64,000 nt of DNA from a virus (IMGVR_UViG_3300021387_000529:218811-282810); one strand, 5' to 3'; positions 5,560-56,557 are shown, counted from the first letter of the stretch. Numbers and translations are program-made. Notes: a model not told the origin generated them from the sequence alone.

Positions 5560-5576
5560 AATAAAATTAGTTATGT
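5560..5576 (-). promoter_or_regulatory. late-class ACTAATT box immediately upstream of ATG 5559
   Basis: One of at least 14 start-proximal AACTAAWT boxes. Here it also forms an inverted repeat AATTAGT-N8-ACTAATT. Confidence 0.45.
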
Positions 5577-5706
5577 CATACTAATTGTTTATATCACTTG
5601 AGGAATTAGCTTGTTGTCCTCAGCCTTGAATAATATTGATAGGCGATGCAGTAGCATTTTATATGGCAATTATAGCAAATCTAACAAACATTAGGAGAAT
5701 TGACAA

Positions 5707-13468: not shown

Positions 13469-13488
13469 TATTTAGTTATAACTAAATA
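13469..13488. promoter_or_regulatory. perfect 20-bp palindrome TATTTAGTTATAACTAAATA placing an AACTAAAT box before both divergent genes (13464 minus strand, 13495 plus strand)
   Basis: Seen directly in the sequence. It is a bidirectional version of the late-class box. Confidence 0.5.
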
Positions 13489-16400: not shown

Positions 16401-18018
16401 TTCAGCAAATTATAATCCAGGACAAACTATTGCTTGTGTTGAGAACTTGAACTCTGCTTATGTAAGTATATTCAAGAATTACTGCTTTACTATCTTCGGA
16501 GTTGGTGGACCAACTGGAAATGGTGAAAATGGTGGTTTCGGCGAAATGGACGGAACAACTGAGAGTATGCCTGGGTCATTTGGTGGAGATGGCTATAATA
16601 GTGGAAGTGGTGGATGTGGTGGTTCTACTAAAAACATACGGCCTTGGACACATTATTGGGGTGGTTTCGTTCCTACGAATGTCGACCTCCAAGTAGCTGC
16701 TGCAGGTTTTGGAGGATTTCCTGGAAGAGCATTTTTCTCACCTGGGTCTAAAGGTTCTGATGGCCGTTGTTTACTTGGAAATAAGTATCAGTATATCTTT
16801 AAACTTAGAGCGAAAACTTCAGAAAGAGGTGGTCAAAAATTTATAGAAATTTGGAACCCTGGAGAGAAAAAAGTTCCATATTATACAGGAATTCCAATTG
16901 TTGTTTTTACAGAAATTATCAAACATAAAGAAAACTTTATAAAGCCAGTAATTTATATTAAATCTGGAATAAAAGGACTAAGTCATCTAACAGCTGAATA
17001 CCAATTAGATGGCTTAGGTGGTGGTCCTGGACTTCCATCATTTTTAAAAATTATTCATAATAATGATGTTCCTTATGGTAGTAATAACACAGAATTAAAA
17101 TTAATTTCTAAAAAGACAGCTTATGGTGAAATATATTCATATTTTTATGATAATGGTAATTTGTCTATTAGTAATGAAGATGAAAATACTGCTGGAATGT
17201 CTTCTGGAAAGTTAGACTATAAAGATAAAGTTAATGTAGACTCAATGATTTTTGAAGGTGGAATTGCTGGTCAGTGTCACACTAGACAACCAAAAAGAAT
17301 TTCTACTTACCTCACAGTTTGGGGTTGGCCTTCTAATAATAGTAGCGATGATGAAGACAGATTTTCTGACTATTCTCCATTTACATATAATTATTTATCA
17401 GGATATACTGCTTCATATGCTCAAGGAAACAGTCAATTTACTCAAGACTGCAAAGCTAGCCTAAAATTCACATCGTCTGGTTCAGATGATATTAAAGGAT
17501 TTTATACAATAAGTCAAAATTTTACAAGAAATAAACTTACAGATTACCGTCTAAAAGAACTTTTAGGAATTTGCGTTAATGGTAACGATAATGGCACTAG
17601 AACTCGTGGTTCGCTCGTTAAATTTGGATTTAAAGGTTTTGACTCAGAATATTATAGCCTTTTTTGTGATAGTGATACAGGACGTAACTTTGATAATACA
17701 TTTGTATTCACAAATTGTTCGGCTGCATATGGGCTATCTAAAGAGTCAGAAGACGGAGAACAAACAATTGCAGAAAATCTTATGAAATCATTCAACTTTG
17801 TAGGTGAGTCAAATGTTTCAACAGACTCTGGAATCGTAAAAATACAAACATTCAATGATATTAGTGTTGATAAAAACAAAAGTGAAAAAATAAGCTTAGA
17901 GTCATTCTATAAAGGAGAACCAGACAACCATAATAGCCTAATAGATGCTGAAACAAATCCGACATCATTGATCAGTATTAGTACGTCAACCTTTATTCCT
18001 GAACAGCCTTTGGAGTAA
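13495..18018 (+). CDS. large tail protein (fibre or baseplate-associated, putative; 1507 aa)
   Basis: Asn-rich giant ORF with a Gly-rich segment (GGPTGNGENGGFGEMDG...GGDGYNSGSGGCGG). It is divergent from the tape-measure gene and preceded by an AACTAAAT box 7 nt before the ATG, with no Shine-Dalgarno site. Confidence 0.55.
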   Translation: MTDNKDPYIYNVDKNSDFEQFAWALENFDVKAAFKDFLNIENNIQKSDKENNTKIYDSLYKQFLDTKSSDHLSQLQLDVLNYILKYENGTYKVNDKIVDIETNKGEKTFTLYEPGFYKVEIKGPSGLQLKNSTNQFLSSGKNYVVYESKDKTTFFIINTKFEYIFQYAVSSNINISCGVAEVNDTNVFLFEQFHDYDRPVHNFQQLIEVDNYFNKCDVYNVNKSTVFEYFSFIDDAFDKNFYCLKTNIVSQSTILSHADITYNPTTYVCGLPENERSEYLSGIQNGYYSKKISENMNINSLKELTFSSFLKSGAVYNYNYLHGGDGGSVVAIIKLDKETTFQYNIGKSDEGSSTFLKSSNYSFYAECGLNANEKSFLKTSDHISNDSLCNLRLITDHNFRDDASKSTTDKVNFHIGENLDYSTYEAGCGRGFVIINNNCVFESYGAGEYGSGYRLNEFKNAVYQPPKNGSIKIEFLGSRYVLHKKVNFSSDNNIRNNLYICDEGLPIGCKFNFQSMITNSMYGCFKNTYSFLSENGRHFNYIGISVDTKEIEDNVVLNFDNNLKYINIDKENKTIFTLQNDKNLFGTLTGSDGESLMLDTIMNGSFSFYNDLLYNYNKFCSNGLSVSISSFSSESFDLKTLFKNFNNLNIFNNVESITQVEFSFENSLSFSKYTDIYGQVVLPDVDEAKIVKLEYSLYNHESPVPYEKGQKIIIPSNTKMFLKFTFNTSRVRLDENLTSFQGYKYFYRKNVDFDNNYIKDEYFKTNGINFQCVEFIPQTSQYCSVFIQKNTYNFSISPDLFNELDLKNFYNRSEFEVGEAVLLQLNIKNYVRVSNLKNYYYKQQSKTILGTPFPAPDKTCPCYTYFDTNNIFESFIRFGNLEDDKNFCDSSVVDLLSRKGFNNVAIESGKEKNYNGIDVLCSREVEEKDYEGDITNNPTLKITCTASASKDESVFIYIYMKECDIKLRLSANYNPGQTIACVENLNSAYVSIFKNYCFTIFGVGGPTGNGENGGFGEMDGTTESMPGSFGGDGYNSGSGGCGGSTKNIRPWTHYWGGFVPTNVDLQVAAAGFGGFPGRAFFSPGSKGSDGRCLLGNKYQYIFKLRAKTSERGGQKFIEIWNPGEKKVPYYTGIPIVVFTEIIKHKENFIKPVIYIKSGIKGLSHLTAEYQLDGLGGGPGLPSFLKIIHNNDVPYGSNNTELKLISKKTAYGEIYSYFYDNGNLSISNEDENTAGMSSGKLDYKDKVNVDSMIFEGGIAGQCHTRQPKRISTYLTVWGWPSNNSSDDEDRFSDYSPFTYNYLSGYTASYAQGNSQFTQDCKASLKFTSSGSDDIKGFYTISQNFTRNKLTDYRLKELLGICVNGNDNGTRTRGSLVKFGFKGFDSEYYSLFCDSDTGRNFDNTFVFTNCSAAYGLSKESEDGEQTIAENLMKSFNFVGESNVSTDSGIVKIQTFNDISVDKNKSEKISLESFYKGEPDNHNSLIDAETNPTSLISISTSTFIPEQPLE

Positions 18019-31181: not shown

Positions 31182-32825
31182 GTGTTAATTTTGTCAGCAA
31201 TTATTGGTGGAGGAATTCTCGCAATCCTCATTCTTATCATGTTTTTTGTTGGATATTTCAAAGCTCCAACAAATAAATGTTTTGTTATTTCGGGTTTGCG
31301 CAAGAATGCACGAAAAGTTATTGGAAAGTCTGGCTTCAGGATTCCGTTCCTCGAGCGTAAGGATGAGCTTACTCTTGAGTTGATTTCAGTTGATGTAAAG
31401 ACACAGGAAGCTGTTCCAACTGCAGAATGTATCAATATCTCAGTTGATGCTGTAGCGAACATCAAGATTGGTACTTCTGATGAAATGTTGCAGAAAGCAT
31501 CACAGAACTTCTTAAACCAGGATGTACGATATATCAACAGCGTTGCTCGCGAAGTTCTTGAAGGTAACTTGCGTGAAATTGTTGGTACCATGACTTTGAA
31601 AGCCATGATGAATGACCGCAAAACTTTTGCTGAGAAGGTTCAGGAAAATGCAGTTCCAGACCTTAACAAAATGGGTCTTGAGATTGTATCATTCAATGTA
31701 CAGAACTTCAGCGATGAGCAGGGTGTAATCAACAACCTTGGTATCGATAACATCGCAACTATTCAGAAGAACGCATCAATTGCAAAAGCAAATGCTAACA
31801 AAGAAGTTGCTGTTGCAGAAGCAAAAGCTCGTGAAGAGTCAAATGACGCAAAGGTTGCTGCTGATACTGCAATTGCTGAAAAGAACAATGCTCTTGAAGT
31901 TCGTAAAGCCGAACTTGAAGCTGAACGTTTGAAGCAGATTGCAAAAGCTGAAGCTGCAGGTGCAATTGAGAAAGAAACACAGCGTAAGACTGTTGAGGTT
32001 ACAAAACAGGAAGCTGAGATTGCCCGCTTGCAGAAAGAGAATGACTTGAAAGAGCAGGAAATCTCAATCAAGGAAAAAGCACTTGATGCTGAAATCAAGA
32101 AACAGGCCGATGCTGAAAAGTATGCTGCTCAGACTCGTGCTGATGCTGAACTTTATGAACGTACAAAAGCCGCTGAAGCTGAAAAGATTGAGAAAGAGCG
32201 CAATGCTGAAGCAAACCTCATTGCTCTCCAGAAGAAAGCTGAAGCTGATAAATACGAGCAGGAAAAAGCCGCTGAAGCTTTGGTTGCAAGGTCTGAAGCT
32301 GAAAAACAGCAGAAGTTGAATGAAGCTGAAGGTCAGAAAGCTCTTGCTGAAGCTATCCAGGCCAAGGGTGAAGCTGAAGCTGCTGCTGTAAAAGCTAAAC
32401 TCGAAGCTGAAGCTGAAGGTCTTCGTAAGAAAGCACTTGCTGAAGCTGAAGGTTTGAAACAGAAAGGTTTGGCTGAGGCTGAAGCAATCAACAAGAAAGC
32501 TGAAGCTCTCGCAAAGATGAATGAAACTGGTAAAATGGACATGCAGTTGGAAGCACTGAAAGCGCTCTTCAGCCAGTTGCCAGCAATGTATGAAGCAGCT
32601 GCCAAACCTTGGGAGAAAGTTGGAAACATCACAATGTACAGTGGTGGAAAAGATGGTGGTGACAACCTTCTTACAGGCAACATCACTAAGACAATCACTC
32701 AGGTTGGTGCAGGTCTTAAAGACTCGCTTGGTATCGACCTTGGAGACGTTGTTAAGGGCCTTGTTGGTGGAAAGCTTGTTGGTTCAGAAGTTGCGAAAGC
32801 ACTTTCAACAAAAGACAAAGCATAA
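31182..32825 (+). CDS. flotillin-like SPFH/band-7 membrane scaffold protein (FloT/YuaG-type)
   Basis: GTG start after the Shine-Dalgarno site AAGGAGG. The protein has an N-terminal transmembrane helix, an SPFH domain (FVISGLRKNARKVIGKSGF...LEIVSFNVQNF), a ~250-aa Ala/Glu/Lys-rich coiled coil (EA repeats), and a Gly-rich C-terminus. Its architecture and 547-aa length match bacterial flotillin. Confidence 0.8.
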   Translation: MLILSAIIGGGILAILILIMFFVGYFKAPTNKCFVISGLRKNARKVIGKSGFRIPFLERKDELTLELISVDVKTQEAVPTAECINISVDAVANIKIGTSDEMLQKASQNFLNQDVRYINSVAREVLEGNLREIVGTMTLKAMMNDRKTFAEKVQENAVPDLNKMGLEIVSFNVQNFSDEQGVINNLGIDNIATIQKNASIAKANANKEVAVAEAKAREESNDAKVAADTAIAEKNNALEVRKAELEAERLKQIAKAEAAGAIEKETQRKTVEVTKQEAEIARLQKENDLKEQEISIKEKALDAEIKKQADAEKYAAQTRADAELYERTKAAEAEKIEKERNAEANLIALQKKAEADKYEQEKAAEALVARSEAEKQQKLNEAEGQKALAEAIQAKGEAEAAAVKAKLEAEAEGLRKKALAEAEGLKQKGLAEAEAINKKAEALAKMNETGKMDMQLEALKALFSQLPAMYEAAAKPWEKVGNITMYSGGKDGGDNLLTGNITKTITQVGAGLKDSLGIDLGDVVKGLVGGKLVGSEVAKALSTKDKA

Positions 32826-38549: not shown

Positions 38550-39230
38550 ATGATTGCAGAAAGAGAATGGCTTAAAAAATATATTGGTTATGACACAAAT
38601 ATAACGCATCCTGTGACAATTTTGCATATGTATGATATGTGCAATTTACAATGCTCATGCTGTTATGTTAAACAAGGATGCTATATGGCAATTCCAAGTG
38701 GCACATTTTTGAGTGATGATGCATTACGAAATGTTGTAAAAGAGTCTGCTGAAAGAAATCAATGCATTTTTACAGGAATTGGTGAGCCATTTCTTTTTTG
38801 GGATAAATACACTAAACCAAAATTATTGCCATTATTAAAAGAATATGGCGCAAAATGTGTAATTTCAACAAATGGGCTTTGGGGAAATAATGATGATGTC
38901 ATTAACGACATTATTTCACTTGAGCCAGAATGCATAAACTTTTCTATAGACTATTATCATAAAGTACCTATTGAGAGTCTCAATCATGCTATAAAAATTT
39001 TATCGTCAGACTCTGTGAAAACTAGAATTTTTATGTCACAAATAACAGACAAAGAACACCCAATTGGGCATATCAAACCGATAAATTATGATAAACTTGT
39101 GAAAGTTGAATTTCCAATGAATAGAAACTCTAATTCAAATCAAGGACTTTCTTTTCATGATGCAGATGGACATATAATTTTTACATCAAAACCAACCACA
39201 AAAGAAAGCTCTCTCAATGTATTCGTTTAG
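38550..39230 (+). CDS. radical SAM protein (QueE/NrdG-like)
   Basis: MYDMCNLQCSCCY contains a CxxxCxxC cluster, and FTGIGEPFLF matches the GGEP-like SAM-binding motif. The protein is 226 aa. Confidence 0.55.
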   Translation: MIAEREWLKKYIGYDTNITHPVTILHMYDMCNLQCSCCYVKQGCYMAIPSGTFLSDDALRNVVKESAERNQCIFTGIGEPFLFWDKYTKPKLLPLLKEYGAKCVISTNGLWGNNDDVINDIISLEPECINFSIDYYHKVPIESLNHAIKILSSDSVKTRIFMSQITDKEHPIGHIKPINYDKLVKVEFPMNRNSNSNQGLSFHDADGHIIFTSKPTTKESSLNVFV

Positions 39231-41918: not shown

Positions 41919-42245
41919 TTAAATAAACTTATCTAATATTACAAAGTCTTTTTTCTCAAAAAAATTTTTAAGAGGAACAAACTTTTTAATTTTAGATTTT
42001 TGAAATACCATAAAAATTGCAATCAGCTTTTGTTGTGTATTTATAGATAAATTTTTTAATAAAGTATAGTTATAAAATTTATTTTTTTCTAAAACACTAC
42101 ACAAGTATAAGAAAACTTTCTCTAATAGCTCATCATAATACCCATGAAAAGCATTACATTTAATGATATTTTGCAGAGCTAAATTTATATAATTTAACTC
42201 TGCATTGTCAGACTCTAACTCAAAATTAGTTTCCAGTTCCGTCAT
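41919..42245 (-). CDS. doubtful ORF in a very AT-rich gap (108 aa from the ATG at 42245)
   Basis: Open frame overlapping the giant gene stop by 20 nt with no Shine-Dalgarno site. The region has roughly 20% G+C and may be non-coding or regulatory. Confidence 0.25.
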   Translation of the reverse strand: MTELETNFELESDNAELNYINLALQNIIKCNAFHGYYDELLEKVFLYLCSVLEKNKFYNYTLLKNLSINTQQKLIAIFMVFQKSKIKKFVPLKNFFEKKDFVILDKFI

Positions 42246-45200
42246 CTGGTGGTGCGGCTTCTTCTGAGCGTTCTCCAATTGTGGCATCAATCTCTCCTTT
42301 TCTATATGCTTCTCCTAAAGAAGCAAGGCTAGTTTTAATTATTGGTTCAGCTAAACCTACTTCTGGGACCCAGTTACCATTAGGCAGATTTGCATATAAC
42401 GTTTCATCAATAAAATATTGAAGACTCATATTTTCAAGTAAGAATTCTTTCCATGCTGCAAAGTCTAATACTTTTTCAGTTATTGATGAACTTAGCTCAA
42501 CATTCATGTCTTCTCGTCCTTCTGTAGTAATAGTAAAATAGCCTGGAGCAGCAATTTCTTCACTTAAATACGGTTTAAATATTCTTGGCTTTTCAGGCCA
42601 GACTCTAATATTTGGAATAACAAAATAGTTTCTCTTGTATTCATTCAATTTATATTTGTGCGTTCCATTATCCTCATCAAGAACCATACCATATAATTCA
42701 AGATTATATCTTACTGGGTCATTATTTGTTTTTTCTACATCAACAACAATTACAGTGAAAGATGTTATCTCATATTCTTGTCCTTTAAATTTAAGCTTAA
42801 TCGCTCTTGAAGATGTGTCAACAATATTATAACGTGTAAATGATTTTAGCTCGATATTATTTGGAGACTTTGCAACATCAAGTTTAAGTGCTGATGGAGT
42901 AAGCGTATGCTGTAATTCTATGAGCTGTCTAATATTTTCAGAAGAAATCTCGATTTTTGAGTCAGGAATTGGCAATATCTGACCATTTATATATGAGTTA
43001 TCTCTGAACTTAAACTCATTAACAAATGTCGTTTCTTTGAAAATTTGTGGTCTAACATTTTGTGTATTGAACAAATATTCATTAAATTCAGTTTCAAATC
43101 TATCCGCTGCGCATCTTGTAGACTTTTTCAAAATAGGTGAACGAACAAATGCGTCTTTAACTGAGACCAAATTTCTTCTTAAAGGCTTAATATAATACTC
43201 TTTATAAGTATGGTTAAAATCACCTTCTGAATGAACAACAGACTTTTCTGAAGTAATATTATGGTCATGTGTAAAAGGCGTAAACTCTGCTGTTGCAGTG
43301 TTATCCGCATGTGTTTCTTTCCAATTTTCAAAACCAGAATTACCAATGCTTACAGTATGGTTAAATGTTGTCGGTGTAGTTGTAATATTTGATGTGCCTA
43401 AAAGAACATTTGCTGTTGTAGTTTTAAGCTCAATTTTTTGTTTGCTTAGTGTAACTACTGGTTTTGCAGACTCATTATTAGTTAAAGAAGGAGCAGATTT
43501 TGTGCCTTCAGATACTAAGTCGCTTCCTTTTACAGTTATTTTAACAGTCTTATTATTTGCTGTTGGTGAGAATGTCGCTGATATTGTTGGGGCGCTACCA
43601 GCAAGCTTAGCAGCAGTCCAAAGTTTGTTAATTGCGTCTTGAAGATTATTAAGTGTAATTGTTCCTCCAGAAGATACATCAACAGTTGTTGAATACTCTT
43701 TATCAGAAGTGCTAATTCCTTCAAGGAAATTATTAGAATTAAGTCCTAAACCGCTTTTGATGAATTTCTGTTCGCCAACTGTAATACCTGTAACGTATTC
43801 TGCTTTATCACCTTCCAATTTAACAGTCTTAATTACGTCTTCTTTATTTTGAGTAAATCCATACTGGTTTATTGTATGCGCAGACACATTTACAGTTAAA
43901 GACTTTTTATCATCTTTATTGTTATTATTTTCAGTCTTGTCTTCTATATAATGAACATACTGCTTACTTGATTTATCTTCATTGCAACTATCTACGGTAA
44001 CGTGCAATTGTTCTGTCTCACGAGTAGACATTAAAATAGAGTCTTTACTAATTGACGTTTCAACCTCTTGACTTGTATCTCCACCTTGTGAATTTACATC
44101 TTCTGGAATATTATCAGAAATTAAAACGTCATGTTTATATGAAGCAGCTGTAGAGTCGATGTCTTCTGTTAAGTTGCCATCTGTACCGTCACTAAAGAAT
44201 TCTTTTTCAAAGAAATAACCTTCAGTAAAACCACCTTTAGTTGGGTCTAACCAATCAATATCATTATTAAGATATTGGCTTACATATGAGAACTCATCGC
44301 TGAATTCAAATCCTGAAAGAGGCTTTCCAACGTTTTCTGGTTCAAGAACTTCACCAATCTGTGTCACATCTTTGAGTACAGTAGCTATATCTGCATATTT
44401 ATTAATTCTTTCAAAGAGTGTTTTATCAGGTATATGTGAGTCTCTTATATTTTTACTAAATACATTTTTTTCAATAAATGCTCGAACGTCCAAAGACTCT
44501 ATCTTTGCATCATCACCAAAAATAGACATATCATAGTCTTCATGGTCTGAACAAGAAATTATGTCATAATTCCAGCCTCTTTCGAGTGTATCGTCATCTA
44601 CAATTTCAATATGAGTTGTGTCTGTATCAAGCAAATTATATTTTTCAGATGAACTATAAACTTTTTTATCAATATAATCATTGAAATCACAACTATGTTC
44701 TTTTCCATTTCTGTCTACCCAAACAAGGTCATTATTCGCAATAGGTCTTTGCAAATATGGGAATGCTTGTTCATATTCAGATGAAAGTCCTGTAATTCCA
44801 TTTAAGAAACCAAAGAAAAATTTTCTTTTTTCTAAGTCTTTGCCACATGATGCATTGATCTTATTTAAGAAAAGGTTTACACTTGTATGATAAACTGGTC
44901 TTGCTAAACGATATGACAAACTTGACTCATATACACCATCAGCTTTTGCTTCTACTGTATAATGTTTTTTATCATGATAATCTGACCATGATGGGAAAAA
45001 GTTTTTAATGAATTGCTCATTAATTTTATCAGGATGACCAATAAGCTCAATAATTTTTCTAAATTCACTCGAGACATTTGTTACTTCTTCATATCCTTCA
45101 AAAAGAGAATCTACCCATTCTGCATCAATATCAGCTGAGTCAAAGTCACGCTCACGTGTAAGTTTTATTGAAGGGATTAAGTCTATTGAGTCTTTTTCAG

Positions 45201-48200
45201 GATTTTGTCCTGAAAAATGACAATCAGACGTTTGTCCCTTAGTTGGTAAATCAACTGGATGTTTAAGACTTTCTAAGTAAGTATTTATGTCAACATCCAA
45301 TCCGTCTTTAAACATTGGAACTGCAATGTCTGAATAGTCACCATTTGGTATGTCATAATAGATGTAACCTGTTTTTATTCCTTCAATAAAGTCATTATAC
45401 ACTGCAATTTCTTTTTCATAATCACTTTGTGTATATTTTTCTACTTTTTTCTCACCATTTTCGTAAGTTGTCTTGTCTCCTTGTAGTACATTAGTGTACA
45501 CTCCACCTTCGATGTTACCCAAAATTAAGAAGACATAAAGAGCATAAAATTGGATTGGCTCTGTGAGTTCAACAGAGCAAATTTTTCTTGAATATGCAGA
45601 TTTATTCCATCTTTTATATAATTTTGTTACAGTTTCATCTGACCACTCACCAATAATACTTTGATTTGAGAACTTAAATCCAGGGTCTTTTTGTCCAATT
45701 TTTAGTCCATAACCTGTAACAAATCTATCATTGTCAAATTCGAATGCTGAGTAAACTGAGTCAGTGTTTGAGCTATTTGAAAAAACCTGTATATTATCCA
45801 AACTTTTGAATGTTGGTATATTTCCAAAAGTCATATTTATAAATGACGCGATATGCGTTCTTTTCGGATTAAATGTTCCATCGTATCTAAATTGTGCTTT
45901 CATGAAAGACAATTTTATGATAATGTCATAAATTATTCCTTCAAGAGATTGTGGAGCAAAGGTTGCTTTCTGACCTTCATAAGGTGAGCCATCAGAAAAG
46001 AACTTATCAGGCTCATCAGCCATTACAACATATTTTTCACCATTTCCATTATCTACGACATAGTCGCCTGTTGCGTCACTAACACCAAAAATTGTATTAC
46101 CAAAGAAATTTTCTTCAAGTGTTACTCCAGTTCTTTCTTCCCATTTAGGGTCAATATTTATTGGCCATGAGAAAGGTGTTCCTTTATAAATTTCACCTTC
46201 AAAAGGTAAGTCAGTATTATAACCTTTACAGTTTTTTGAAAAAACAATATTTTTTGCTAAAGTAAAACTATATGAGTCATCAGCTCTTGTATAGTTTACA
46301 GGTCTATCGTAACGTGAGTTCATTGTGATGCGTGAACATGCTTTTATAATCTCTTGACATTTATAGTTTATCCATAATTGAGCAAGATGTGATATTCCAC
46401 CAGACTCTTTTAAAATATCTTTTAATTTTAGATTTCCTTTTGAAAAGTCATCATATGCATCTTCAATTGTTTTAAAATTACGTGTTGAAGAAGAAGCACG
46501 TTTTTTGCCATAGTCACTGTAGTTATCAACTAAAAGATTCAATAATAATGACTTAAAACCATTGTTTTCAGCAACAACGTCAAGGCTATCCAAATAGCTA
46601 TCAGTCTTATAGCTAATAAAGCCATTTTCATTCAAAAATTTCAAAAATCTTGAAATTCCTAAATCATCAACATAGTATGATAATTCTGTTTCGACATTTG
46701 CTTCTTTTGAGAATGCGCCAAAATAGTCATATCCGAATAAAAGTCTTTCAATCTTCAAAAGTCTTTCTTCTGTTTCTGTTGCTGCTCTTGACAAAAGTCC
46801 TAAAAATGACTGATAATCAATTCTTGAACGGAGAGACCAACCATCGTTTATTGCTTGCTTTATATCTGCATCAGACTTATCAACTGAAAGCTTATTTGTA
46901 GACTCATTAATTTTACCATTAAAAGTATCATCAAAAATTTTAAAAGAATATCCATTCTCCAAAAAGTCTGAAAGTCTATCTTTAATAATTGAAATTTTTT
47001 CTTTCCCAGATGTTGACTCATTAAAAATAGATGGATATAATACCTTAAAAATTCTTAATGCGCTCTTATCATATTCAACACCATGCTCATTTGTTGTGTC
47101 TTCTGCTGTGAATGACGCTTGGAATTGTGCATTTAATTTTGCAACTGGAACTTCACCAGACAAGTCATATTCCCATGAGATTTTCTTTTCATTCTCTCCA
47201 TCACCGATAATATAATCTTGTGTGAATATTTCTGTGTCAGAGTCTTTTCCACTTATAAGTCTATAAACTACGCCAGCTTTATTTTCACCATCTGTGTGTT
47301 TGAACTCAATACTACTTGAGAGCTCTCTTGTAAATCCAGATGAAGCATTTCCATCATCTTCATTTATATCAACTTTTCCACCGATATAGATTTTATCGCC
47401 TTGAATTACAAGGTTATTTGCTGAGTCAACCAATGGAGTCCATGGATTGAGTGCAGGATATTGATTCAAATAGATTGAGTTATACTGTGTTGGTCTACGA
47501 CGAACTGTTACATATAGCTGAATAGTTTTTTGAGCTTTAGTTCCTATTGGCCAAGTTACACCAAGACAATCTTCATTATTTACATTTTCAGGCTGAGTAA
47601 TCATATAAAGATATGTATTCTTTGACTCAGCTACAACTTGCCATTCAAATCCAGCAAATTTTCCATTTGGAAGCTGCCAAAAACCTGGTGAAATTATTTG
47701 TCCACTTTCTTTTTCCTGAACAATAATGTCATATGCTTCAATGTTCTGTCCATTATTGTCCATATATGCGCCAAGCTGTACAAGATTTGTAATATTTATT
47801 CTGAGGTCAGATGACTCTACTGTTCCGCCTCTAGTTCCAACTTTTTTGTAAGGAATATCCAATTGATAACACTGTTCTGGCCAAACATATGCTTGAGACT
47901 CAGGTGAGCCTTCTTTTGAATACTTTATTTGAGCAGCACATGTTTTACCGTCATCGATTGTATAATAAAGGTCTCTAAATTTCCAATATGTTGGTTTTGT
48001 TTTTGAAAGAATACCAGTTTCAGTATTCTCACCATAGAGTTCCCAGTTGCCTTCATTTACACGAGTGAATGGACCATTTTTATTTTTAGAGAATACAAAA
48101 ATATCTTTTGCATAACAATATGTAAGAAGTGGCGTCCAATCAATAGACTCACCATAAACAGTATGTACAGACTTATCGATTAAACAATATCCAGCATCTG

Positions 48201-49296
48201 TCAAGTTTTCACCAAAAACAGGCTTGATTGTTCCAATCATTTCTGCAGACGCAATAGACTTTGCATAGCGACAATCAACAAGAAATTTGTTTGTTCCGAA
48301 TCCAACACCTACTTTAAACTCGATTGAGTCAGAAGATTCTTCAAAGTCAATGTCTCCATCTTTAATGCAAGCTGTTTTACCAAATGAGCTTGTGCTAAAT
48401 CCAAAATTTCCGCTTACAATTCCGAGTCTTGTGATTGTGATTGTTTTTCCGAGATAGTCTTCTAATGATAATTTTCCATTTTTTGATGGCGCTACAAAAA
48501 CACCAGCAATGTCATTCTTGTCATTTGCTTTTAAAATTGTGTCATTTAAGACAAGAATACCTTTTCCATTTACAATTTTTACAGGAATAATTTTATCATA
48601 GTCAGATGTATTATCTTCTAATGAGATTTCTTGTGTATCTGTAATATCAACTGAAATTTGTGTTGTGTCTACAACACCGCGTACATCACCTGAGAGCTGA
48701 ATTTCAATTAAAATTTTTTGATATTTTTTTAATACTTCTTTTGATGGAAGTGGAGCATCAGCTATACGTCCAATACAGATGATTGTTCCACCATCATAAG
48801 TGGCCTCTGCGAGGTCTATAGTAAGCTCGCCTTTATTTTTATTTGAAACATAGACTGGCTTACCAATGTCTTCATATGTCCATTTAAAAGCATTTCCATC
48901 ATTTGGAGGAAGATAATAGTCTTCTTTACCATAATTTGCAATATCATACTCAATCTGGCCATGTGATTGAACATGTACTTTTTTGTTATCGCCTGCTATT
49001 CCAGGCTCAAGAAGAATACCAACTGAAAATTGATTTACTGATGGGTCAACAACTACAATTGCGCTATCGCCTTGGCCTGAAGCTTCAACTGCAAGTTGAC
49101 TTTCATATCCAACTGCGACTGGTTGTCCTTTTTTAAGTTTGGTTGAACTACCTACCAAATATGTTGAAAGTGGGTTCAACCAATTAGAAGCTGCATCATT
49201 TTTTGAATTATATCTTAATTGGCCATTTTTTCCATTAATCCAGATGTTACCTTCTTTGTAAAGAAGCTCTTGTGGTAAATCAATATTTGCATTCAT
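42226..49296 (-). CDS. giant virion protein (2356 aa; tail or baseplate-associated, putative)
   Basis: Single 7.07-kb ORF with the box ttcatAACTAATTatttaatt-ATG and no Shine-Dalgarno site. No enzymatic motif was recognised. Confidence 0.7.
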   Translation of the reverse strand: MNANIDLPQELLYKEGNIWINGKNGQLRYNSKNDAASNWLNPLSTYLVGSSTKLKKGQPVAVGYESQLAVEASGQGDSAIVVVDPSVNQFSVGILLEPGIAGDNKKVHVQSHGQIEYDIANYGKEDYYLPPNDGNAFKWTYEDIGKPVYVSNKNKGELTIDLAEATYDGGTIICIGRIADAPLPSKEVLKKYQKILIEIQLSGDVRGVVDTTQISVDITDTQEISLEDNTSDYDKIIPVKIVNGKGILVLNDTILKANDKNDIAGVFVAPSKNGKLSLEDYLGKTITITRLGIVSGNFGFSTSSFGKTACIKDGDIDFEESSDSIEFKVGVGFGTNKFLVDCRYAKSIASAEMIGTIKPVFGENLTDAGYCLIDKSVHTVYGESIDWTPLLTYCYAKDIFVFSKNKNGPFTRVNEGNWELYGENTETGILSKTKPTYWKFRDLYYTIDDGKTCAAQIKYSKEGSPESQAYVWPEQCYQLDIPYKKVGTRGGTVESSDLRINITNLVQLGAYMDNNGQNIEAYDIIVQEKESGQIISPGFWQLPNGKFAGFEWQVVAESKNTYLYMITQPENVNNEDCLGVTWPIGTKAQKTIQLYVTVRRRPTQYNSIYLNQYPALNPWTPLVDSANNLVIQGDKIYIGGKVDINEDDGNASSGFTRELSSSIEFKHTDGENKAGVVYRLISGKDSDTEIFTQDYIIGDGENEKKISWEYDLSGEVPVAKLNAQFQASFTAEDTTNEHGVEYDKSALRIFKVLYPSIFNESTSGKEKISIIKDRLSDFLENGYSFKIFDDTFNGKINESTNKLSVDKSDADIKQAINDGWSLRSRIDYQSFLGLLSRAATETEERLLKIERLLFGYDYFGAFSKEANVETELSYYVDDLGISRFLKFLNENGFISYKTDSYLDSLDVVAENNGFKSLLLNLLVDNYSDYGKKRASSSTRNFKTIEDAYDDFSKGNLKLKDILKESGGISHLAQLWINYKCQEIIKACSRITMNSRYDRPVNYTRADDSYSFTLAKNIVFSKNCKGYNTDLPFEGEIYKGTPFSWPINIDPKWEERTGVTLEENFFGNTIFGVSDATGDYVVDNGNGEKYVVMADEPDKFFSDGSPYEGQKATFAPQSLEGIIYDIIIKLSFMKAQFRYDGTFNPKRTHIASFINMTFGNIPTFKSLDNIQVFSNSSNTDSVYSAFEFDNDRFVTGYGLKIGQKDPGFKFSNQSIIGEWSDETVTKLYKRWNKSAYSRKICSVELTEPIQFYALYVFLILGNIEGGVYTNVLQGDKTTYENGEKKVEKYTQSDYEKEIAVYNDFIEGIKTGYIYYDIPNGDYSDIAVPMFKDGLDVDINTYLESLKHPVDLPTKGQTSDCHFSGQNPEKDSIDLIPSIKLTRERDFDSADIDAEWVDSLFEGYEEVTNVSSEFRKIIELIGHPDKINEQFIKNFFPSWSDYHDKKHYTVEAKADGVYESSLSYRLARPVYHTSVNLFLNKINASCGKDLEKRKFFFGFLNGITGLSSEYEQAFPYLQRPIANNDLVWVDRNGKEHSCDFNDYIDKKVYSSSEKYNLLDTDTTHIEIVDDDTLERGWNYDIISCSDHEDYDMSIFGDDAKIESLDVRAFIEKNVFSKNIRDSHIPDKTLFERINKYADIATVLKDVTQIGEVLEPENVGKPLSGFEFSDEFSYVSQYLNNDIDWLDPTKGGFTEGYFFEKEFFSDGTDGNLTEDIDSTAASYKHDVLISDNIPEDVNSQGGDTSQEVETSISKDSILMSTRETEQLHVTVDSCNEDKSSKQYVHYIEDKTENNNNKDDKKSLTVNVSAHTINQYGFTQNKEDVIKTVKLEGDKAEYVTGITVGEQKFIKSGLGLNSNNFLEGISTSDKEYSTTVDVSSGGTITLNNLQDAINKLWTAAKLAGSAPTISATFSPTANNKTVKITVKGSDLVSEGTKSAPSLTNNESAKPVVTLSKQKIELKTTTANVLLGTSNITTTPTTFNHTVSIGNSGFENWKETHADNTATAEFTPFTHDHNITSEKSVVHSEGDFNHTYKEYYIKPLRRNLVSVKDAFVRSPILKKSTRCAADRFETEFNEYLFNTQNVRPQIFKETTFVNEFKFRDNSYINGQILPIPDSKIEISSENIRQLIELQHTLTPSALKLDVAKSPNNIELKSFTRYNIVDTSSRAIKLKFKGQEYEITSFTVIVVDVEKTNNDPVRYNLELYGMVLDEDNGTHKYKLNEYKRNYFVIPNIRVWPEKPRIFKPYLSEEIAAPGYFTITTEGREDMNVELSSSITEKVLDFAAWKEFLLENMSLQYFIDETLYANLPNGNWVPEVGLAEPIIKTSLASLGEAYRKGEIDATIGERSEEAAPPDDGTGN

Positions 49297-49333: not shown

Positions 49334-49714
49334 TTAGCCTTGTTTTTCTTCAATAACAGAAAATTTTAATGGAACAACTGCAGCTTTGCAAATGTCATCT
49401 TTTAGCATTTTATTGTCATCGATAACATCAGCTGGTATAAGCTTTTTTGCAATCAATTGATTTATAAACTCTGGAAAAAACGCCTGAGCCTGCGCAAATG
49501 TTGGAAAAATCTCATTTGAATAAAATGGAAATACAAACTTCTGATTTTCCAATTCTTCTTTCAATAGTTTTGGTGTCTTTTTATGAGCACGCTCATCATA
49601 ATGCTCAAGCTCATTTGCAATTGGCGTGCCATAAAAAATAGCACACTGAAAAAATCCTTCCTGTTTCGGCATTTTGCTCATAATTCTTTCCTTATTGATA
49701 ATATCACTCGACAT
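49334..49714 (-). CDS. hypothetical protein (126 aa) coupled to the chaperonin gene
   Basis: Overlaps the GroEL-like stop by 11 nt. It has no GroES-like mobile-loop signature. Confidence 0.55.
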   Translation of the reverse strand: MSSDIINKERIMSKMPKQEGFFQCAIFYGTPIANELEHYDERAHKKTPKLLKEELENQKFVFPFYSNEIFPTFAQAQAFFPEFINQLIAKKLIPADVIDDNKMLKDDICKAAVVPLKFSVIEEKQG

Positions 49715-51350
49715 TAAACATTCTTCCTGGGTCTACAATTTCATCAAGTGGCTCAATTGACATATTCTTTACGTCTGAAACAACAATAGTGTCAATCGAC
49801 ATAAATTGCTCAGCAATGTTTGAAGAATATATAATTGAGTTCTTTACAACAGTGTATGGGTCAATAATTCCTTTTTCAAGGATGCGCTCAACAGTTGCTG
49901 TTCGTGCATTGAAACCAACATCAGGGTCGTTCAAAATCTGTGGAACAACTGCTACAATTTCAGAGCCAGTTGACTCAATCAATTTCAAAGCTGGAGCACG
50001 AATTGCAGCCATAAATCTCTCATATGCAGTTTTCTGTGGGATAGTCAAGTCTTTTGTATCTTCTGGAGTTGTGCTATATGAAATACGAAGAAGTGAAGTT
50101 CCAGCACCAATCAAAACACCTTCAGCCAAAGAATTACGAACAGCGTTGATTGCGTCTTCATATCTGTCTTTCTTTTCTGAAAGCTCAACTGATGTTAAAG
50201 CTCCAACATAGATTGTTGCAATACCACCTGTAAGGCGAGCGATACGTTCTTTAATTGCATCAATTTGAAATGGCGACTTACCATGAATACAGTCGCCTTC
50301 TTCAGTCAAGCTCTTCAAAAGCTCAATGTGTTTATCAAATTCTTCTTTATTTGTATTTGGGTCAGTGATGATTGTTTCTTTTGCTGTTACATTGATTGCG
50401 CCGCAAGTTCCACAATCTTTAAAAGAATTGAACTCATCAATTTCTTTATCAATACCAATAATTTTTCCAGATGTGATAACAGCAATATCCTGAATATTTG
50501 CCTGAATAGACTCACGTGAAATACCAGGCGCACGAATAAAAACAACATTCTGTGTTACAAGTTTTTTGATATACATTGCAAGAACATCATCACCATATTC
50601 TGGAGCAACAACAAGAATATTTTTTCCGAGAAGTGGCTGCAAAATAAGTGCCAATTTTTCAGAGTCTTCAACAATATCATTAAACAAAATGACTTTTACA
50701 TCATTCAAAATACACTGGTCATTTGCAGAATTGACACATTTTGATGAAATAAAACCTTTATCAAGTTGAAGTCCCTGTTTGATGTCAAGCACAGTTTTTC
50801 CTGTTCGTGACATAGAGTCTGCCATTGAAACAAGACCACCATCACCAATTGAAGTGAATGCTTCAACAACCATATTAGCGATTTCTTCATCACCATTTGC
50901 AGAAACAAGAGCAATATTTCTCATCATTTCTTCTGAGTCAATTGTTTTTTTGTAAGCTTCAAGTTTTTTAAGAACATCTTCACGAGCTTTTTTGTAAGCT
51001 ACACGAAGGTCATTGATGTCAATTCCCTGCATAAGAAGTGAATTAGCTTTATCACACAATGCAGCTGTCAAAATTGTAGTAGATGTTGAGCCATCACCAG
51101 AATGCATATTTGCGCGGTCAGATGCTTCTTTCAAAAGTTTAAGTCCTGTGTCCATACACTCATCCGAAAATTGAAGAATTTTTAAGACTGAAATACCATC
51201 TTTTGTTGATATTGAGTTTGTTCCTTTTGTATAAGAAACAGTACGTCCTCTTGGTCCAAATGTTGATGCTACTGCTCTAGCAGCAAGTTGAATTCCTATA
51301 TTTATCTGAGCTCTTGCTCTTTGTCCAAATATTATACTTTTACCTGCCAT
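49704..51350 (-). CDS. groEL: GroEL-type (Cpn60) chaperonin
   Basis: GPRGRTVSY...TKDGISV...GDGSTSTT...LVVAPEY...GGIATIYVGALTSVELSEKKDRYEDAINAVRNSLAEGVLIGAGTSLL aligns block by block with GroEL ([66 protein letters not shown]). The protein is 548 aa and lacks the C-terminal GGM repeats. Confidence 0.85.
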   Translation of the reverse strand: MAGKSIIFGQRARAQINIGIQLAARAVASTFGPRGRTVSYTKGTNSISTKDGISVLKILQFSDECMDTGLKLLKEASDRANMHSGDGSTSTTILTAALCDKANSLLMQGIDINDLRVAYKKAREDVLKKLEAYKKTIDSEEMMRNIALVSANGDEEIANMVVEAFTSIGDGGLVSMADSMSRTGKTVLDIKQGLQLDKGFISSKCVNSANDQCILNDVKVILFNDIVEDSEKLALILQPLLGKNILVVAPEYGDDVLAMYIKKLVTQNVVFIRAPGISRESIQANIQDIAVITSGKIIGIDKEIDEFNSFKDCGTCGAINVTAKETIITDPNTNKEEFDKHIELLKSLTEEGDCIHGKSPFQIDAIKERIARLTGGIATIYVGALTSVELSEKKDRYEDAINAVRNSLAEGVLIGAGTSLLRISYSTTPEDTKDLTIPQKTAYERFMAAIRAPALKLIESTGSEIVAVVPQILNDPDVGFNARTATVERILEKGIIDPYTVVKNSIIYSSNIAEQFMSIDTIVVSDVKNMSIEPLDEIVDPGRMFNVE

Positions 51351-53910: not shown

Positions 53911-54177
53911 ATGGGAATGAAAGAAACATTTGATAAAAAATTAGCCTACCTGATTTCCATGGTAGGCTTTCATGGTTTAATGAAGATTCCTAATGATTGG
54001 TGGGACTATGCTTATACTGACAAACCAGCAACAAAGTCTGGTTTACATGAATACGGAACTACTTTTAGGATTGTGTCATTATGCAAACAATATGAAAAAC
54101 AATATCTCAAAAAATTAGATGATGCTGGAATTAAAATATCAGCAACAAAAGATGGAATTACATATTCAAAAAAATAA
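53911..54177 (+). CDS. hypothetical protein (88 aa)
   Basis: ORF. Confidence 0.45.
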   Translation: MGMKETFDKKLAYLISMVGFHGLMKIPNDWWDYAYTDKPATKSGLHEYGTTFRIVSLCKQYEKQYLKKLDDAGIKISATKDGITYSKK

Positions 54178-54206
54178 AAAGACGCTCATGAAGAGCGTCT
54201 TTCTTC
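54176..54206. terminator. bidirectional terminator (aaagacgctc-atgaa-gagcgtcttt)
   Basis: Read on the minus strand, the hairpin is followed by ttttatttttt, so it terminates the bS21 gene. It also follows plus-strand gene 53911..54177. Confidence 0.65.
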
Positions 54207-54464
54207 TTAGTCTTTCTTCGACTGTTTCTTAGCTTCAGCTTCTTTTAGCCATTCAGGTTTTGAAGCTTCTTTACGTTCAGCATCAGCAATCTTTTTCTGG
54301 ATATGGCGTGCATGAACTCTCTTCAAATGTTTCTTTGCAGAAGGCTTAACATAACGTGTCCGTTCCATGTAGTCTGAAAGAATACATTCTTTGTCAATCT
54401 CTTTCTTGAACTTGCGAAGTGCTTTATCAAGAGACATTTTCTCAGTAAGATTGACGGTTACCAT
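54207..54464 (-). CDS. rpsU: ribosomal protein bS21 homologue
   Basis: MVTVNLTEKMSLDKALRKFKKEIDKECILSDYMERTRYVKPSAKKHLKRVHARHIQKK aligns with E. coli S21 ([59 protein letters not shown]), and the protein has a Lys-rich C-terminal tail. The likely start is the ATG at 54464 with Shine-Dalgarno site AAGGA; the track extends to GTG 54500. Confidence 0.8.
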   Translation of the reverse strand: MVTVNLTEKMSLDKALRKFKKEIDKECILSDYMERTRYVKPSAKKHLKRVHARHIQKKIADAERKEASKPEWLKEAEAKKQSKKD

Positions 54465-54514
54465 AAGAATCACCATCCTTAACAGGAGCGGTATACTCAC
54501 TGTTATTTTTTAGA

Positions 54515-54850
54515 TTAATAATTATTCACATCTTTTTTGTCAGCAAGCGCGCTCTCAACAAAACCAAGCAAGTCATTTCCCTGAGGAATATAGAAGTCAT
54601 CACCAGGCTTAAGTGCATTTATGTAAGGCACGTTATTTTCCATTAAAAGAATGTCATCGTCTTCTTCTTTATCATAATATTCTTCAACAATAGTCCAAGG
54701 CTTTGTAATTTGAGAAGATGATATTTTTATGCCAATTGGAATTTTTTCAATTTTTCCATTATTATAATTTATTGAAAGTGGATCTGGAAAATTCAATCCA
54801 TCTTCATCGAGAACACAACTTTCATCATAGTAGTCATAACGTGAATGCAT
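54515..54850 (-). CDS. hypothetical protein (111 aa; the track TTG start at 54868 lies inside the box)
   Basis: The ATG at 54850 is preceded by ttGACTAATTataataca and has no Shine-Dalgarno site. Confidence 0.5.
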   Translation of the reverse strand: MHSRYDYYDESCVLDEDGLNFPDPLSINYNNGKIEKIPIGIKISSSQITKPWTIVEEYYDKEEDDDILLMENNVPYINALKPGDDFYIPQGNDLLGFVESALADKKDVNNY

Positions 54851-54871
54851 TGTATTATAATTAGTCAATTT

Positions 54872-54883
54872 AACTAAATATTT
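54872..54883 (+). promoter_or_regulatory. late-class AACTAAAT box 4 nt upstream of ATG 54884 (plus-strand example)
   Basis: caatttAACTAAATattt-ATG with no Shine-Dalgarno site. Confidence 0.45.
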
Positions 54884-56557
54884 ATGTTTAGCCTTTTTGA
54901 GTCTATTTTATATAAAACACGAGAAAATTACTTACAAGAGTCTCTTGAATATTTGACAGAAGCTGCAAAAAATAAAATAAAAAGTTTTGATGAATTGCCA
55001 TCTGTTTTTTCAAGCCTTGGAATTGGAAAAGAATTTTGCATAAATGGTAAATATTTTGGTATTCAGAAGTCTGGAAACGCAACAGTAAAAAACTGCGGTG
55101 GAAACTTAGTTGTCTCATCAAATGGAAAAAGAGCAATTCCAGCAACACAAAATGAAATTATTGCAGTATTAGATGAAATTAAAAAAGCTAAGCCTGATGC
55201 AAAAACATCTTATGGAAACACTTTTAACATTGATATTGACGGATATGTCTTAAAATTGCGTGTAACAGGTGGTGGAGGTAAACAGAGCACATTCTTTCCT
55301 GCAGGCGATGAAGAAAATAATAGTCCTTATGTTAAAGAAGTTGAAGCTGGCTTGTCAATGTCAAATCTTACATTTTTTGAAGAGTTTATGACTGCACAAC
55401 TATTCAACATTTCTAAGAAAAACGATAGTTTTGAGGATTTATGCAATATTGTTGAAGGAAAAGCCGATAGGTCTTCAGCATTTTATGAAAGATGTTTTTC
55501 AATTTTAAGCAGTATCAATAAAAAACTTTCTGAAGGCGTTAAAAAAGTATTAGAAAATGTAAAGTCAGCAGAAGACTTTAGAAATGAAATTTTGCCTCAA
55601 CTTGGAGACTGGAAAGAAGCAATTTCAAAAGTTGTTGTTTGTATGAACCATAAAATTGATGAAGAAATTAAGCGTGTAAGTGGCGAAAATAGAAACAATT
55701 GGAATAAAGAAAATTGTACTGTAAATGAAGAAATGGTTGCATTCCATCCAAAGCAATTGGACACTTTTGAAGTAGACCAATATTTAGACCCAACTGATAT
55801 TGTTTTATTGAATGAGGTTTATAAACAAGGCGGAACACACACAGATAGAAATGGAAAAGAGAGACAAAATAAACTTGAATATAACACAAAAGGAAAAAAT
55901 CCATTTATTGAGCCAGGAATGAGCTCAAAAGACCCAATTATTAGATATAAAGCAATTGGTGTTTCATTGAAAAAACCTTCAGATAGTGAAGCTAACGCAC
56001 ACTATATTGGAACAGCTCATATTGAAAGGTCTACAGCATTAAGTGTAGGCTTTGACAAAGATGGAAATCTGATTGGTGATTTGAAAGACGTAAAGGTTAG
56101 AAACTCATCTTCATCAGGCTATTTCGACTTCGAAGTAAGTGATGAATTCGCAGAAAGCATTGGAAGCAACACAACTGTAAATTTTTCTATGAGAAATAAA
56201 AATACAAATAGCTCCAGCGGCTCAATTACAGGCGAAGCAAACGGAATTGCTGGAGCACGTGGTGGTGGTTTAGGTGGAGCTGAATTGATGAAGTCACTTT
56301 TTGAAGGTAAGAAAGCTCCAGAAAAATATTCTGAACCATATAAAAATGGCCCATCATTCATAAATTATCTATTGAATGCTTATGGTGAAAAAACAACAGC
56401 TCCAGAAGCAACAAATGCAGATGGCGCTATGAGCATTAAACAAAATAAAGCATTGACTATTGCAATTGCGAAGGCTTTCGCTGCTTCTTTGAAAATTCCA
56501 TTTGTTGAAATTGGAAAGAATGCAACTGTAATACCATCATATATTAAGATCGCATAA
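54884..56557 (+). CDS. hypothetical protein (557 aa), late class, possibly virion-associated
   Basis: ORF with the late box and no Shine-Dalgarno site. No motif was recognised. Confidence 0.6.
   Translation: MFSLFESILYKTRENYLQESLEYLTEAAKNKIKSFDELPSVFSSLGIGKEFCINGKYFGIQKSGNATVKNCGGNLVVSSNGKRAIPATQNEIIAVLDEIKKAKPDAKTSYGNTFNIDIDGYVLKLRVTGGGGKQSTFFPAGDEENNSPYVKEVEAGLSMSNLTFFEEFMTAQLFNISKKNDSFEDLCNIVEGKADRSSAFYERCFSILSSINKKLSEGVKKVLENVKSAEDFRNEILPQLGDWKEAISKVVVCMNHKIDEEIKRVSGENRNNWNKENCTVNEEMVAFHPKQLDTFEVDQYLDPTDIVLLNEVYKQGGTHTDRNGKERQNKLEYNTKGKNPFIEPGMSSKDPIIRYKAIGVSLKKPSDSEANAHYIGTAHIERSTALSVGFDKDGNLIGDLKDVKVRNSSSSGYFDFEVSDEFAESIGSNTTVNFSMRNKNTNSSSGSITGEANGIAGARGGGLGGAELMKSLFEGKKAPEKYSEPYKNGPSFINYLLNAYGEKTTAPEATNADGAMSIKQNKALTIAIAKAFAASLKIPFVEIGKNATVIPSYIKIA

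Follow-up and report, generated by a model that had tools for sequence, protein, structure and literature searches.

The window analysed here is a stretch of viral DNA of 64,000 nucleotides (nt; IMGVR_UViG_3300021387_000529:218811-282810), and the gene in question lies on its minus strand at 54207..54464, i.e., it runs from an ATG at 54464-54462 to a TAA at 54209-54207. Its product has 85 amino acids (aa; MVTVNLTEKMSLDKALRKFKKEIDKECILSDYMERTRYVKPSAKKHLKRVHARHIQKKIADAERKEASKPEWLKEAEAKKQSKKD) and an isoelectric point (pI) of 9.9, and it is almost certainly a viral homologue of the ribosomal protein bS21 (rpsU). The similarity to bacterial S21 across the core, which an earlier note had read from this DNA, is borne out by profile searches. 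The hidden Markov model PF01165 (Ribosomal_S21) of Pfam matches with 44.6 bits (gathering score 27, E=1.1e-11, profile positions 1-51 of 55), TIGR00030 (S21p) with 36.3 bits (cut-off 28.95), and phrog_21469 ('ribosomal protein S21') with E=1.4e-7. The best 24 sequence matches in the PDB are bS21 chains throughout (24/24), with similar scores (20-30 bits) for spirochaete, proteobacterial, Firmicute and Flavobacterium ribosomes. The ALRKFKK and YVKPS motifs align with these solved chains, and K40, P41 and S42 show no variation in the alignment.

The AlphaFold2 model of the protein, based on 16 homologues, reaches a predicted local distance difference test (pLDDT) score of 82.5 and comprises four helices (residues 12-25, 28-36, 43-68 and 71-84). 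When this model is compared with the PDB using Foldseek, the top 7 matches are bS21 chains with probabilities of 0.95-0.60, but with E-values of 0.06-0.55 and template modelling scores of 0.39-0.63. Such weak statistics are to be expected for a non-globular ribosomal protein that is modelled off the ribosome. The Lys-rich tail described in the earlier note is present, i.e., residues 60-85 contain 7 K, but together with 5 A and 5 E they form a mixed-charge, K/E/A-rich segment that is not simply Lys-rich. It is also the least conserved part among the relatives.

With regard to these relatives, a word-index search with the window S21 found four close clusters (96-65% identity). An exhaustive HMMER search of 1.84 billion representatives returned only 53 proteins at E<=1e-3, and the window protein is therefore considered a divergent S21. 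It belongs to a divergent subgroup of S21 proteins, whose signature is (Y/F)(V/L)KPSAKKH...H(I/V)xKK. The best HMMER matches outside the window's family are P0005 and P0008, which cluster with P0057 and P0058, respectively, and the latter two S21 relatives sit on phage-like contigs. The nearest subgroup members with a checkable context are located on large phage-like contigs. All members of the window S21 family come from metagenome assemblies. Neither tblastn of S21 and megablast of 8 kilobases (kb) against 50,697 GenBank phage records nor an IMG/VR scan using the single S21 protein gave a match. A genome scan returned almost only Bacteroidales rpsU (30-40% identity), but its search patterns pre-select that motif, such that a Bacteroidales origin was not accepted on this ground.

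For the S21 core, the ratio of non-synonymous to synonymous substitution rates (dN/dS) is 0.06-0.07 when the window is compared to the related loci L001 and L003, with synonymous sites near saturation, and 0.11 between L001 and L003. On the basis of these ratios (0.06-0.11), the core is under strong purifying selection and decay is ruled out. Given this, the family cut-offs passed and the phage-like contigs of its relatives, the earlier view of a phage-borne bS21 homologue stands. The relatives also define the start of the protein. An in-frame extension upstream of the ATG would yield a protein that differs between relatives, and AAGGATGGTG upstream of S21 is invariant among them, yet the frame in which it would be read varies. 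It is thus conserved as an RNA signal, and MVTV represents the real N-terminus of S21.

The gene has its own Shine-Dalgarno (SD) site, as had been noted before, but an unusually long one. The extended SD UAAGGAUGGUGAU (54469..54481, minus strand) comprises 13 nt, ends 4 nt before the S21 ATG, and forms 12 pairs with the 3' tail of the 16S rRNA (GAUCACCUCCUUA) with one bulged U. We measured SD strength as the duplex energy of positions -22 to -3 with this tail. The S21 SD yields -15.9 kcal/mol, which is rank 1 of about 71 open reading frame (ORF) starts in the window; the next gene shows -14.0 kcal/mol and an ordinary SD about -8.7 kcal/mol. The core AAGGAUGGUG is invariant in L001-L004 and L089-L095 (-13.5 to -15.3 kcal/mol), and the L089 clade keeps it although the rest of its spacer is unrelated. 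Where the starts of family loci were ranked (L003, L089, L093), S21 takes rank 1 in 3/3 cases.

Extended SDs are also found in two other phage S21 lineages, i.e., L007 (AAGGAGGUGAU, -19.0 kcal/mol, rank 1 of 25) and L005 (UAAGGAAGUGAUC, -15.9 kcal/mol). In L005 (9955-10003) as well as in L006, an ACG is located at the ATG position of the S21 homologues and the downstream codons are near-identical to those of the window at DNA level; this ACG could be a non-AUG start. Another side observation is the extended SD (-19 kcal/mol) of the dUTPase gene that directly follows S21 in L096. A hairpin over the S21 start codon that would sequester the SD was considered and discarded, as it is weak and without real covariation. 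For rpsU in Bacteroidota, SD pairing below -13 kcal/mol is characteristic and underlies a feedback via ribosomes without bS21 (McNutt et al. 2023, PMC9976891), while the SD of phage bS21 genes is not discussed by Chen et al. 2022 (PMC9723584).

Upstream of S21, a gene for an acidic 111-aa protein (54515..54850, minus strand; pI 4.1), in the following called the partner, ends at a distance of 50 nt on the same strand. No terminator is found within these 50 nt and the gene pair is conserved; the description of S21 as monocistronic is therefore probably incorrect. An ACTAATT box (54859..54865, minus strand) lies 8 nt upstream of the partner ATG and is a candidate late-type promoter of the partner-S21 unit. 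Boxes of this type (ACTAAWT) also precede the partner gene in L001, L003, L089, L101 and L104. Since S21 takes the second place in a conserved cassette of two genes, with the box in front of the first, it is most simply co-transcribed with that class. A divergent ACTAAAT box (54873..54879, plus strand) is placed 4 nt upstream of the ATG of a 557-aa gene (54884-56557). A scan for sigma70-type promoters near S21 stayed at chance level (9 found, 10.1 expected), and an Rfam search of the S21 locus gave sub-threshold chance matches only.

Between the two genes, the minimum free energy fold shows a hairpin directly 5' of the SD (54480..54505, minus strand; UAACAG...CUGUUA with an inner GAG/CUC helix). 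At this place, hairpins of 6-7 base pairs (bp) are present in four clades with four different stem sequences, which read AUGAG/CUCAU in L001/L003, GUUAGA/UCUAAC in L089 and UGUCCGA/UCGGACA in L096. They lack a T-run and are thus not canonical terminators. The spacer also contains the motif TTAATCTAAAAA (54507..54518, minus strand), which overlaps the partner stop codon. The window, L001-L004 and L096/L097 share this conserved TTAATCT(W)AAAA motif, which is not kept in the L089 clade. The idea of a general promoter class was rejected, since no enrichment is seen elsewhere in the window. It could be an internal promoter, a 5' stabiliser or an anti-SD partner; the first option would speak against joint transcription, and given the conservation of the motif S21 may have a separate transcript. 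Downstream of S21, the terminator reported in the earlier note is found as a bidirectional intrinsic one (54176..54204, both strands) with a 12-bp stem including 5 GC pairs, followed by UUUUUAUUUUUUU on the minus strand. It also serves a convergent 88-aa gene (53911-54177), and all relatives have a hairpin with a T-run behind S21, with a stem sequence that differs from relative to relative.

The order partner-then-S21 is kept in four lineages with different neighbours, namely the window's family, L089-L092, L096/L097 and L101/L102. The partner of L089-L092 is about 60% identical to that of the window, and the pair is flanked by DnaB and dUTPase in L096/L097 and by DnaB and ThyA in L101/L102. 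As an aside, genes for a 288-aa flagellin and a FlaA-like protein are located downstream of the partner-S21-dUTPase block in L096 (3691-6336) and L097 (4727-6336). The AlphaFold2 model of the partner is weak (pLDDT 53), with residues 39-88 predicted as a LysM-like beta-alpha-alpha-beta arrangement. Its top Foldseek matches are baseplate proteins of the phages P1, phiCD508 and A-1(L) and a LysM effector, none of them significant (E>1).

The conservation of an acidic (pI 4.1) and a basic (pI 9.9) product side by side in four genomic contexts would also suit a function off the ribosome, i.e., S21 as an RNA-binding regulator, RNA chaperone or virion-packaged protein, with or without its acidic neighbour. 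Non-ribosomal associations of bS21 are reported, e.g., with the OLE ribonucleoprotein (PMC12054373), and virion packaging was raised as a possibility by Chen et al. (PMC9723584). We nevertheless consider an off-ribosome function very unlikely, since the conserved residues are those of the ribosomal core motifs and the partner gene also occurs without S21 (L098, L100 and the IMG/VR loci L103-L106). Given the latter finding, the gene pairing may also reflect shared ancestry and not shared function. S21 is therefore seen as an accessory gene behind a more widespread phage gene, and a role of the partner as an S21-specific cofactor is unlikely.

The ACTAAWT box of the cassette is one of several start-site signals in the window. 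The earlier note had proposed a class of SD-less genes behind this box, and the class is real. Overall, the 7-mer is not over-represented (22 copies vs. 36.7 expected), but for 11/22 copies the ATG of an ORF with 50 aa or more follows at a distance of 4-8 nt, compared to a mean of 0.46 such placements for each control 7-mer of the same composition, with the best controls being shifted versions of ACTAAWT. The genes that start 4-8 nt behind a box are without SD. Two genes (starts at 41794 and 59892) have their box at a larger distance of 22-23 nt, and here an AAGGAG SD occupies the space between box and ATG. The box thus fits a promoter and not a ribosome-binding site. Back-to-back pairs are observed between divergent genes at 5565/5580 (5565-5586), 13470/13481 and 54859/54873. 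The second pair (13470-13487), which separates the 1177-aa gene from the 1507-aa gene, forms the perfect palindrome ATTTAGTTATAACTAAAT, and the third is shared by the partner-S21 unit and the divergent 557-aa gene. Most likely, ACTAAWT is a phage-specific promoter with transcripts that would start at or just before the ATG, such that the first cistrons would be leaderless or nearly so.

Three giant ORFs of 2356 aa (42226-49296, minus strand), 1507 aa (13495-18018, plus strand) and 1177 aa (9931-13464, minus strand) all lie behind ACTAAWT boxes. Neither these nor the S21 neighbours have a sequence match in Pfam, PHROG or the PDB. A second signal is formed by seven near-identical sigma70-type promoters on the plus strand (447, 7312, 27186, 28180, 34374, 51828 and 62022), which read TTTTTTGAAC-N17-TATATTATAT(y)CGTAA and each lead into a 20-30-nt leader that contains an SD. 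These are probably early promoters read by the host RNA polymerase. Thirdly, TTAATAT(A)TTATA boxes are found 1-15 nt before an ATG (1881, 20746(-), 27152(-), 35220, 36052, 51365(-) and 51491, with the minus strand as marked). They front the genes of thymidine kinase, the SbcC-like protein and GroEL as well as others, including those of DNA metabolism, and may represent a middle promoter class, also with very short leaders.

Beside S21, PHROG matches in the window include an SbcC-like nuclease subunit, a DNA helicase, a UvsX-like recombinase, an NAD-dependent DNA ligase, a thymidine kinase, a thymidylate synthase and a GroEL (phrog_5725, E=2e-100). Further genes encode a dCMP deaminase, an SPFH/flotillin protein and a radical-SAM protein. 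Taken together, such genes are characteristic of large phages. Syntenic metagenome contigs reach 256,585 and 293,460 bp and share a common gene order, i.e., ligase, dCMP deaminase (where present), the S21 cassette, proteins of 559-761 aa, a C39-like protein, GroEL and a giant ORF, with a 2100-2300-aa homologue of the latter following GroEL in the relatives. Distant relatives of the partner gene occur in IMG/VR, including an uncultivated viral genome of 385,934 bp. Given the replication and auxiliary genes, the synteny with very large contigs and the IMG/VR relatives, we treat the window as phage DNA, namely as part of a new jumbo-phage family with genomes of roughly 250-300 kb. A search for cultured relatives via UvsX gave only matches below 30% identity.

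Counting against this assignment, the 64 kb contain no recognised gene for a capsid, portal or terminase protein. This lack of recognised structural genes would allow for bacterial chromosome or plasmid DNA with the cell's own rpsU, or for a decaying hitch-hiker. Such an origin is, however, highly improbable: the window contains no tRNA genes, no other ribosomal genes were noticed nearby, and several PHROG matches stand beside a majority of ORFs, giants included, without detectable homologues. Furthermore, the partner has relatives in IMG/VR and the dN/dS values given above exclude decay.

Some of the auxiliary genes deserve a separate remark. GroEL (548 aa; 49704-51350, minus strand) is followed in all relatives by a conserved ORF of 118-129 aa (in the window at 49334-49714, minus strand), and no GroES was recognised among the ORFs screened. 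The SPFH/flotillin-like protein (31182-32825, plus strand) carries Band_7 and Flot domains, with FloT as its best NCBIfam match below the cut-off, and is an unusual phage cargo; its gene has the second-strongest SD of the window (-14.0 kcal/mol). For the radical-SAM protein (38550-39230, plus strand), weak sub-threshold NCBIfam matches include the prokaryotic viperin family. Its gene is convergent with a 193-aa gene, and the start regions of both directly adjoin terminator hairpins.

The start-site statistics bear on the host. SD pairing of at most -7 kcal/mol is found for 42% of the window genes of at least 100 aa compared to 7% in mock regions, while the same analysis of 80 Bacteroidales rpsU loci yields 7% for both. 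Frequent SDs together with the TTGAAC-N17-TATATT promoters imply that ribosomes and RNA polymerase of the host use canonical signals; judged by these signals, the host is probably not a member of the Bacteroidota. Residue His54 of S21 aligns without a gap with Tyr54 of Bacteroidia bS21 ('HAxYVQK' motif; 7jil_z), but it aligns equally well with the conserved His (RH) of gammaproteobacterial bS21, given a 2-residue gap. Two further routes to the host were abandoned. GroEL names no host, as all 120 matches listed are on metagenome contigs, many of 260-386 kb. The family names of flagellin and flotillin give a loose hint of Bacillota or spirochaetes, but they are not taxon-specific.

To relate these features to a function, we consider the following model. 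bS21 sits on the platform of the 30S subunit next to the anti-SD tail. The transcription unit would comprise, in this order, the ACTAATT box, the acidic 111-aa gene, the hairpin, the 13-nt extended SD, S21 and the intrinsic terminator. S21 would thus be made alongside the SD-less, near-leaderless first genes of the ACTAAWT operons, with its own translation driven by the strongest SD of the region. The small basic phage protein would enter the host 30S at the platform beside the anti-SD tail, replace or top up host bS21 and thereby, late in infection, change or maintain the choice of start sites to the benefit of phage messages. Incorporation into the ribosome with some effect on initiation is the part of the model that we hold with moderate confidence, arguing from the family membership and known cases. 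A specific link of the phage bS21 to the leaderless class appears improbable, and the sequence revealed no feature that would connect the S21 protein with SD-less mRNAs.

The model draws on several published observations. bS21 is a loosely bound, exchangeable ribosomal protein, and the version of phage HTVC008M is taken up by E. coli ribosomes (PMC6375957). The expression of phage bS21 goes along with that of late structural genes (PMC9723584), and loss or paralogues of bS21 change mRNA selectivity (PMC9976891, PMC9578407). An initiation bias by viral bS21 toward phage messages, as also suggested in the earlier note, is the standard published hypothesis (PMC6375957, PMC9723584).

Other observations weigh against the model. 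In vitro, E. coli ribosomes with viral bS21 lost almost all translation activity (PMC6375957). Ribosomes deficient in uS2, which show enhanced leaderless translation, are also without bS21 (PMC10491246), and the authors propose that the missing bS21 frees anti-SD movement and eases the exit of leaderless mRNAs. This work associates leaderless translation with a lack of bS21, which has no obvious fit with a phage that adds it. The S21 genes of L096 and L101 have ordinary SDs (-8.0 and -9.7 kcal/mol). Finally, the label 'late' for ACTAAWT genes is a guess, based on the large proteins without recognisable homologues behind this box, while the other motif classes front DNA-metabolism genes.

The main rival explanation assumes supply instead of reprogramming, i.e., the phage copy would keep the 30S pool saturated with bS21 after host shut-off with unchanged mRNA specificity. 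bS21 is needed for efficient initiation, and the very strong SD would only match S21 output to the ribosome pool. The canonical ALRKFKK and Y-x-KPS motifs retained in the N-terminal core agree with this, as do the extended SD, which suits a need for high yield, and the exchangeability of bS21 (PMC6375957); moreover, no specificity-determining feature was identified. On the other hand, an identity of only about 25-45% to any solved bacterial bS21 and an extra tail of 15-25 residues mean more divergence than a spare part needs, and bS21 paralogues of Francisella can change which mRNAs are translated (PMC9578407). Overall, we regard mere supply as possible but doubtful.

A bolder alternative is a phage with two translation regimes and a ribosome switch under feedback control. 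Here, a divergent bS21, expressed from an rpsU-like leader with an extended SD through which the bS21 status of ribosomes would be sensed, would alter the exposure of the anti-SD tail and retune the 30S platform late in infection, such that specialised ribosomes would shift the balance from SD-led host mRNAs toward leaderless mRNAs of the ACTAAWT class. The conserved SD (-15.9 kcal/mol) is beyond the -13 threshold of Bacteroidota rpsU (PMC9976891), extended SDs recur in the two other phage S21 lineages, His54 aligns gaplessly with Tyr54 of the Bacteroidales 'HAxYVQK' motif, and the genome has two translation-start regimes. This is opposed by a host that already reads SDs (42% of window genes vs. 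7% for Bacteroidales loci) and canonical early promoters (TTGAAC-N17-TATATT), by the equal match of His54 to the gammaproteobacterial His with a 2-residue gap, by the missing extended SD in L096 and L101, and by extended SDs on other genes such as the L096 dUTPase. We therefore rate such a switch as unlikely, and incorporation into the host 30S with some effect on initiation remains our preferred reading.

Virus-encoded bS21 as such is known from HTVC008M and about 1,300 viral contigs (Mizuno et al. 2019, PMC6375957) and from huge phages (Al-Shayeb et al. 2020, PMC7162821), and Chen et al. 2022 (PMC9723584) surveyed 900 genomes. The window S21 resembles the cases of Mizuno et al. and Al-Shayeb et al. 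in being a small basic protein in a large lytic-type phage genome, under purifying selection and accessory among relatives. It differs in its source, since aquatic samples account for about 90% of the cases reported, while the window family stems from metagenome assemblies only (the record name of one relative may point to cattle rumen), and in that the protein is very divergent. With the freshwater Bacteroidetes jumbo phages of Chen et al. (PMC9723584) it shares a genome size class (about 290-330 kb there), a bS21 gene on the opposite strand to flanking genes, apparently late genes around it, variable C-terminal tails and, if the gapless alignment is followed, an aromatic or imidazole residue at position 54 (His in the window S21). 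In contrast to these, the window phage is SD-rich (42%), has sigma70-type early promoters and probably infects a host outside the Bacteroidota. None of its S21 neighbours can be identified as a terminase, capsid or protease gene, and neither the coupling to a 111-aa partner nor the extended SD is described for those phages.

The autoregulated rpsU of Bacteroidia (McNutt et al. 2023, PMC9976891) is comparable in that the S21 mRNA carries by far the strongest SD nearby (-15.9 kcal/mol here, below -13 there). There, however, hardly any other gene has an SD, and the system depends on ordinary ribosomes being unable to read SDs, whereas SDs are common here. The SD helix of the window furthermore has a conserved bulged U, and feedback belongs to the Bacteroidia system, while for the window it is the SD sequence that is known. 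The bS21 paralogues of Francisella tularensis (PMC9578407, PMC13374519) are similar since an extra bS21 variant could make specialised ribosomes and the leader has regulatory features of its own. Those paralogues are chromosomal, from one bacterium and backed by experiments, while the window variant is viral and known from sequence alone.

That is, phage bS21 genes are already known, and what is new is a divergent member in a new jumbo-phage family with a host that is probably outside the Bacteroidota. Among such genes, the window copy is set apart only by its SD, the strongest of the region, and by an operon of late appearance. Without the host, the window adds one more divergent lineage to a known phenomenon. 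Two aspects merit further work, i.e., the conserved extended SD, which the phage S21 lineages L005 and L007 show as well, and the clear classes of promoters and start sites. To our knowledge, bS21 is the commonest virus-encoded ribosomal protein, and we know of no natural phage-host pair in which its function has been shown. The window family offers a compact testable setting for this function, as it combines a bS21 cassette, an rpsU-like extended SD, SD-led and SD-less gene classes, and relatives with and without the S21 gene.

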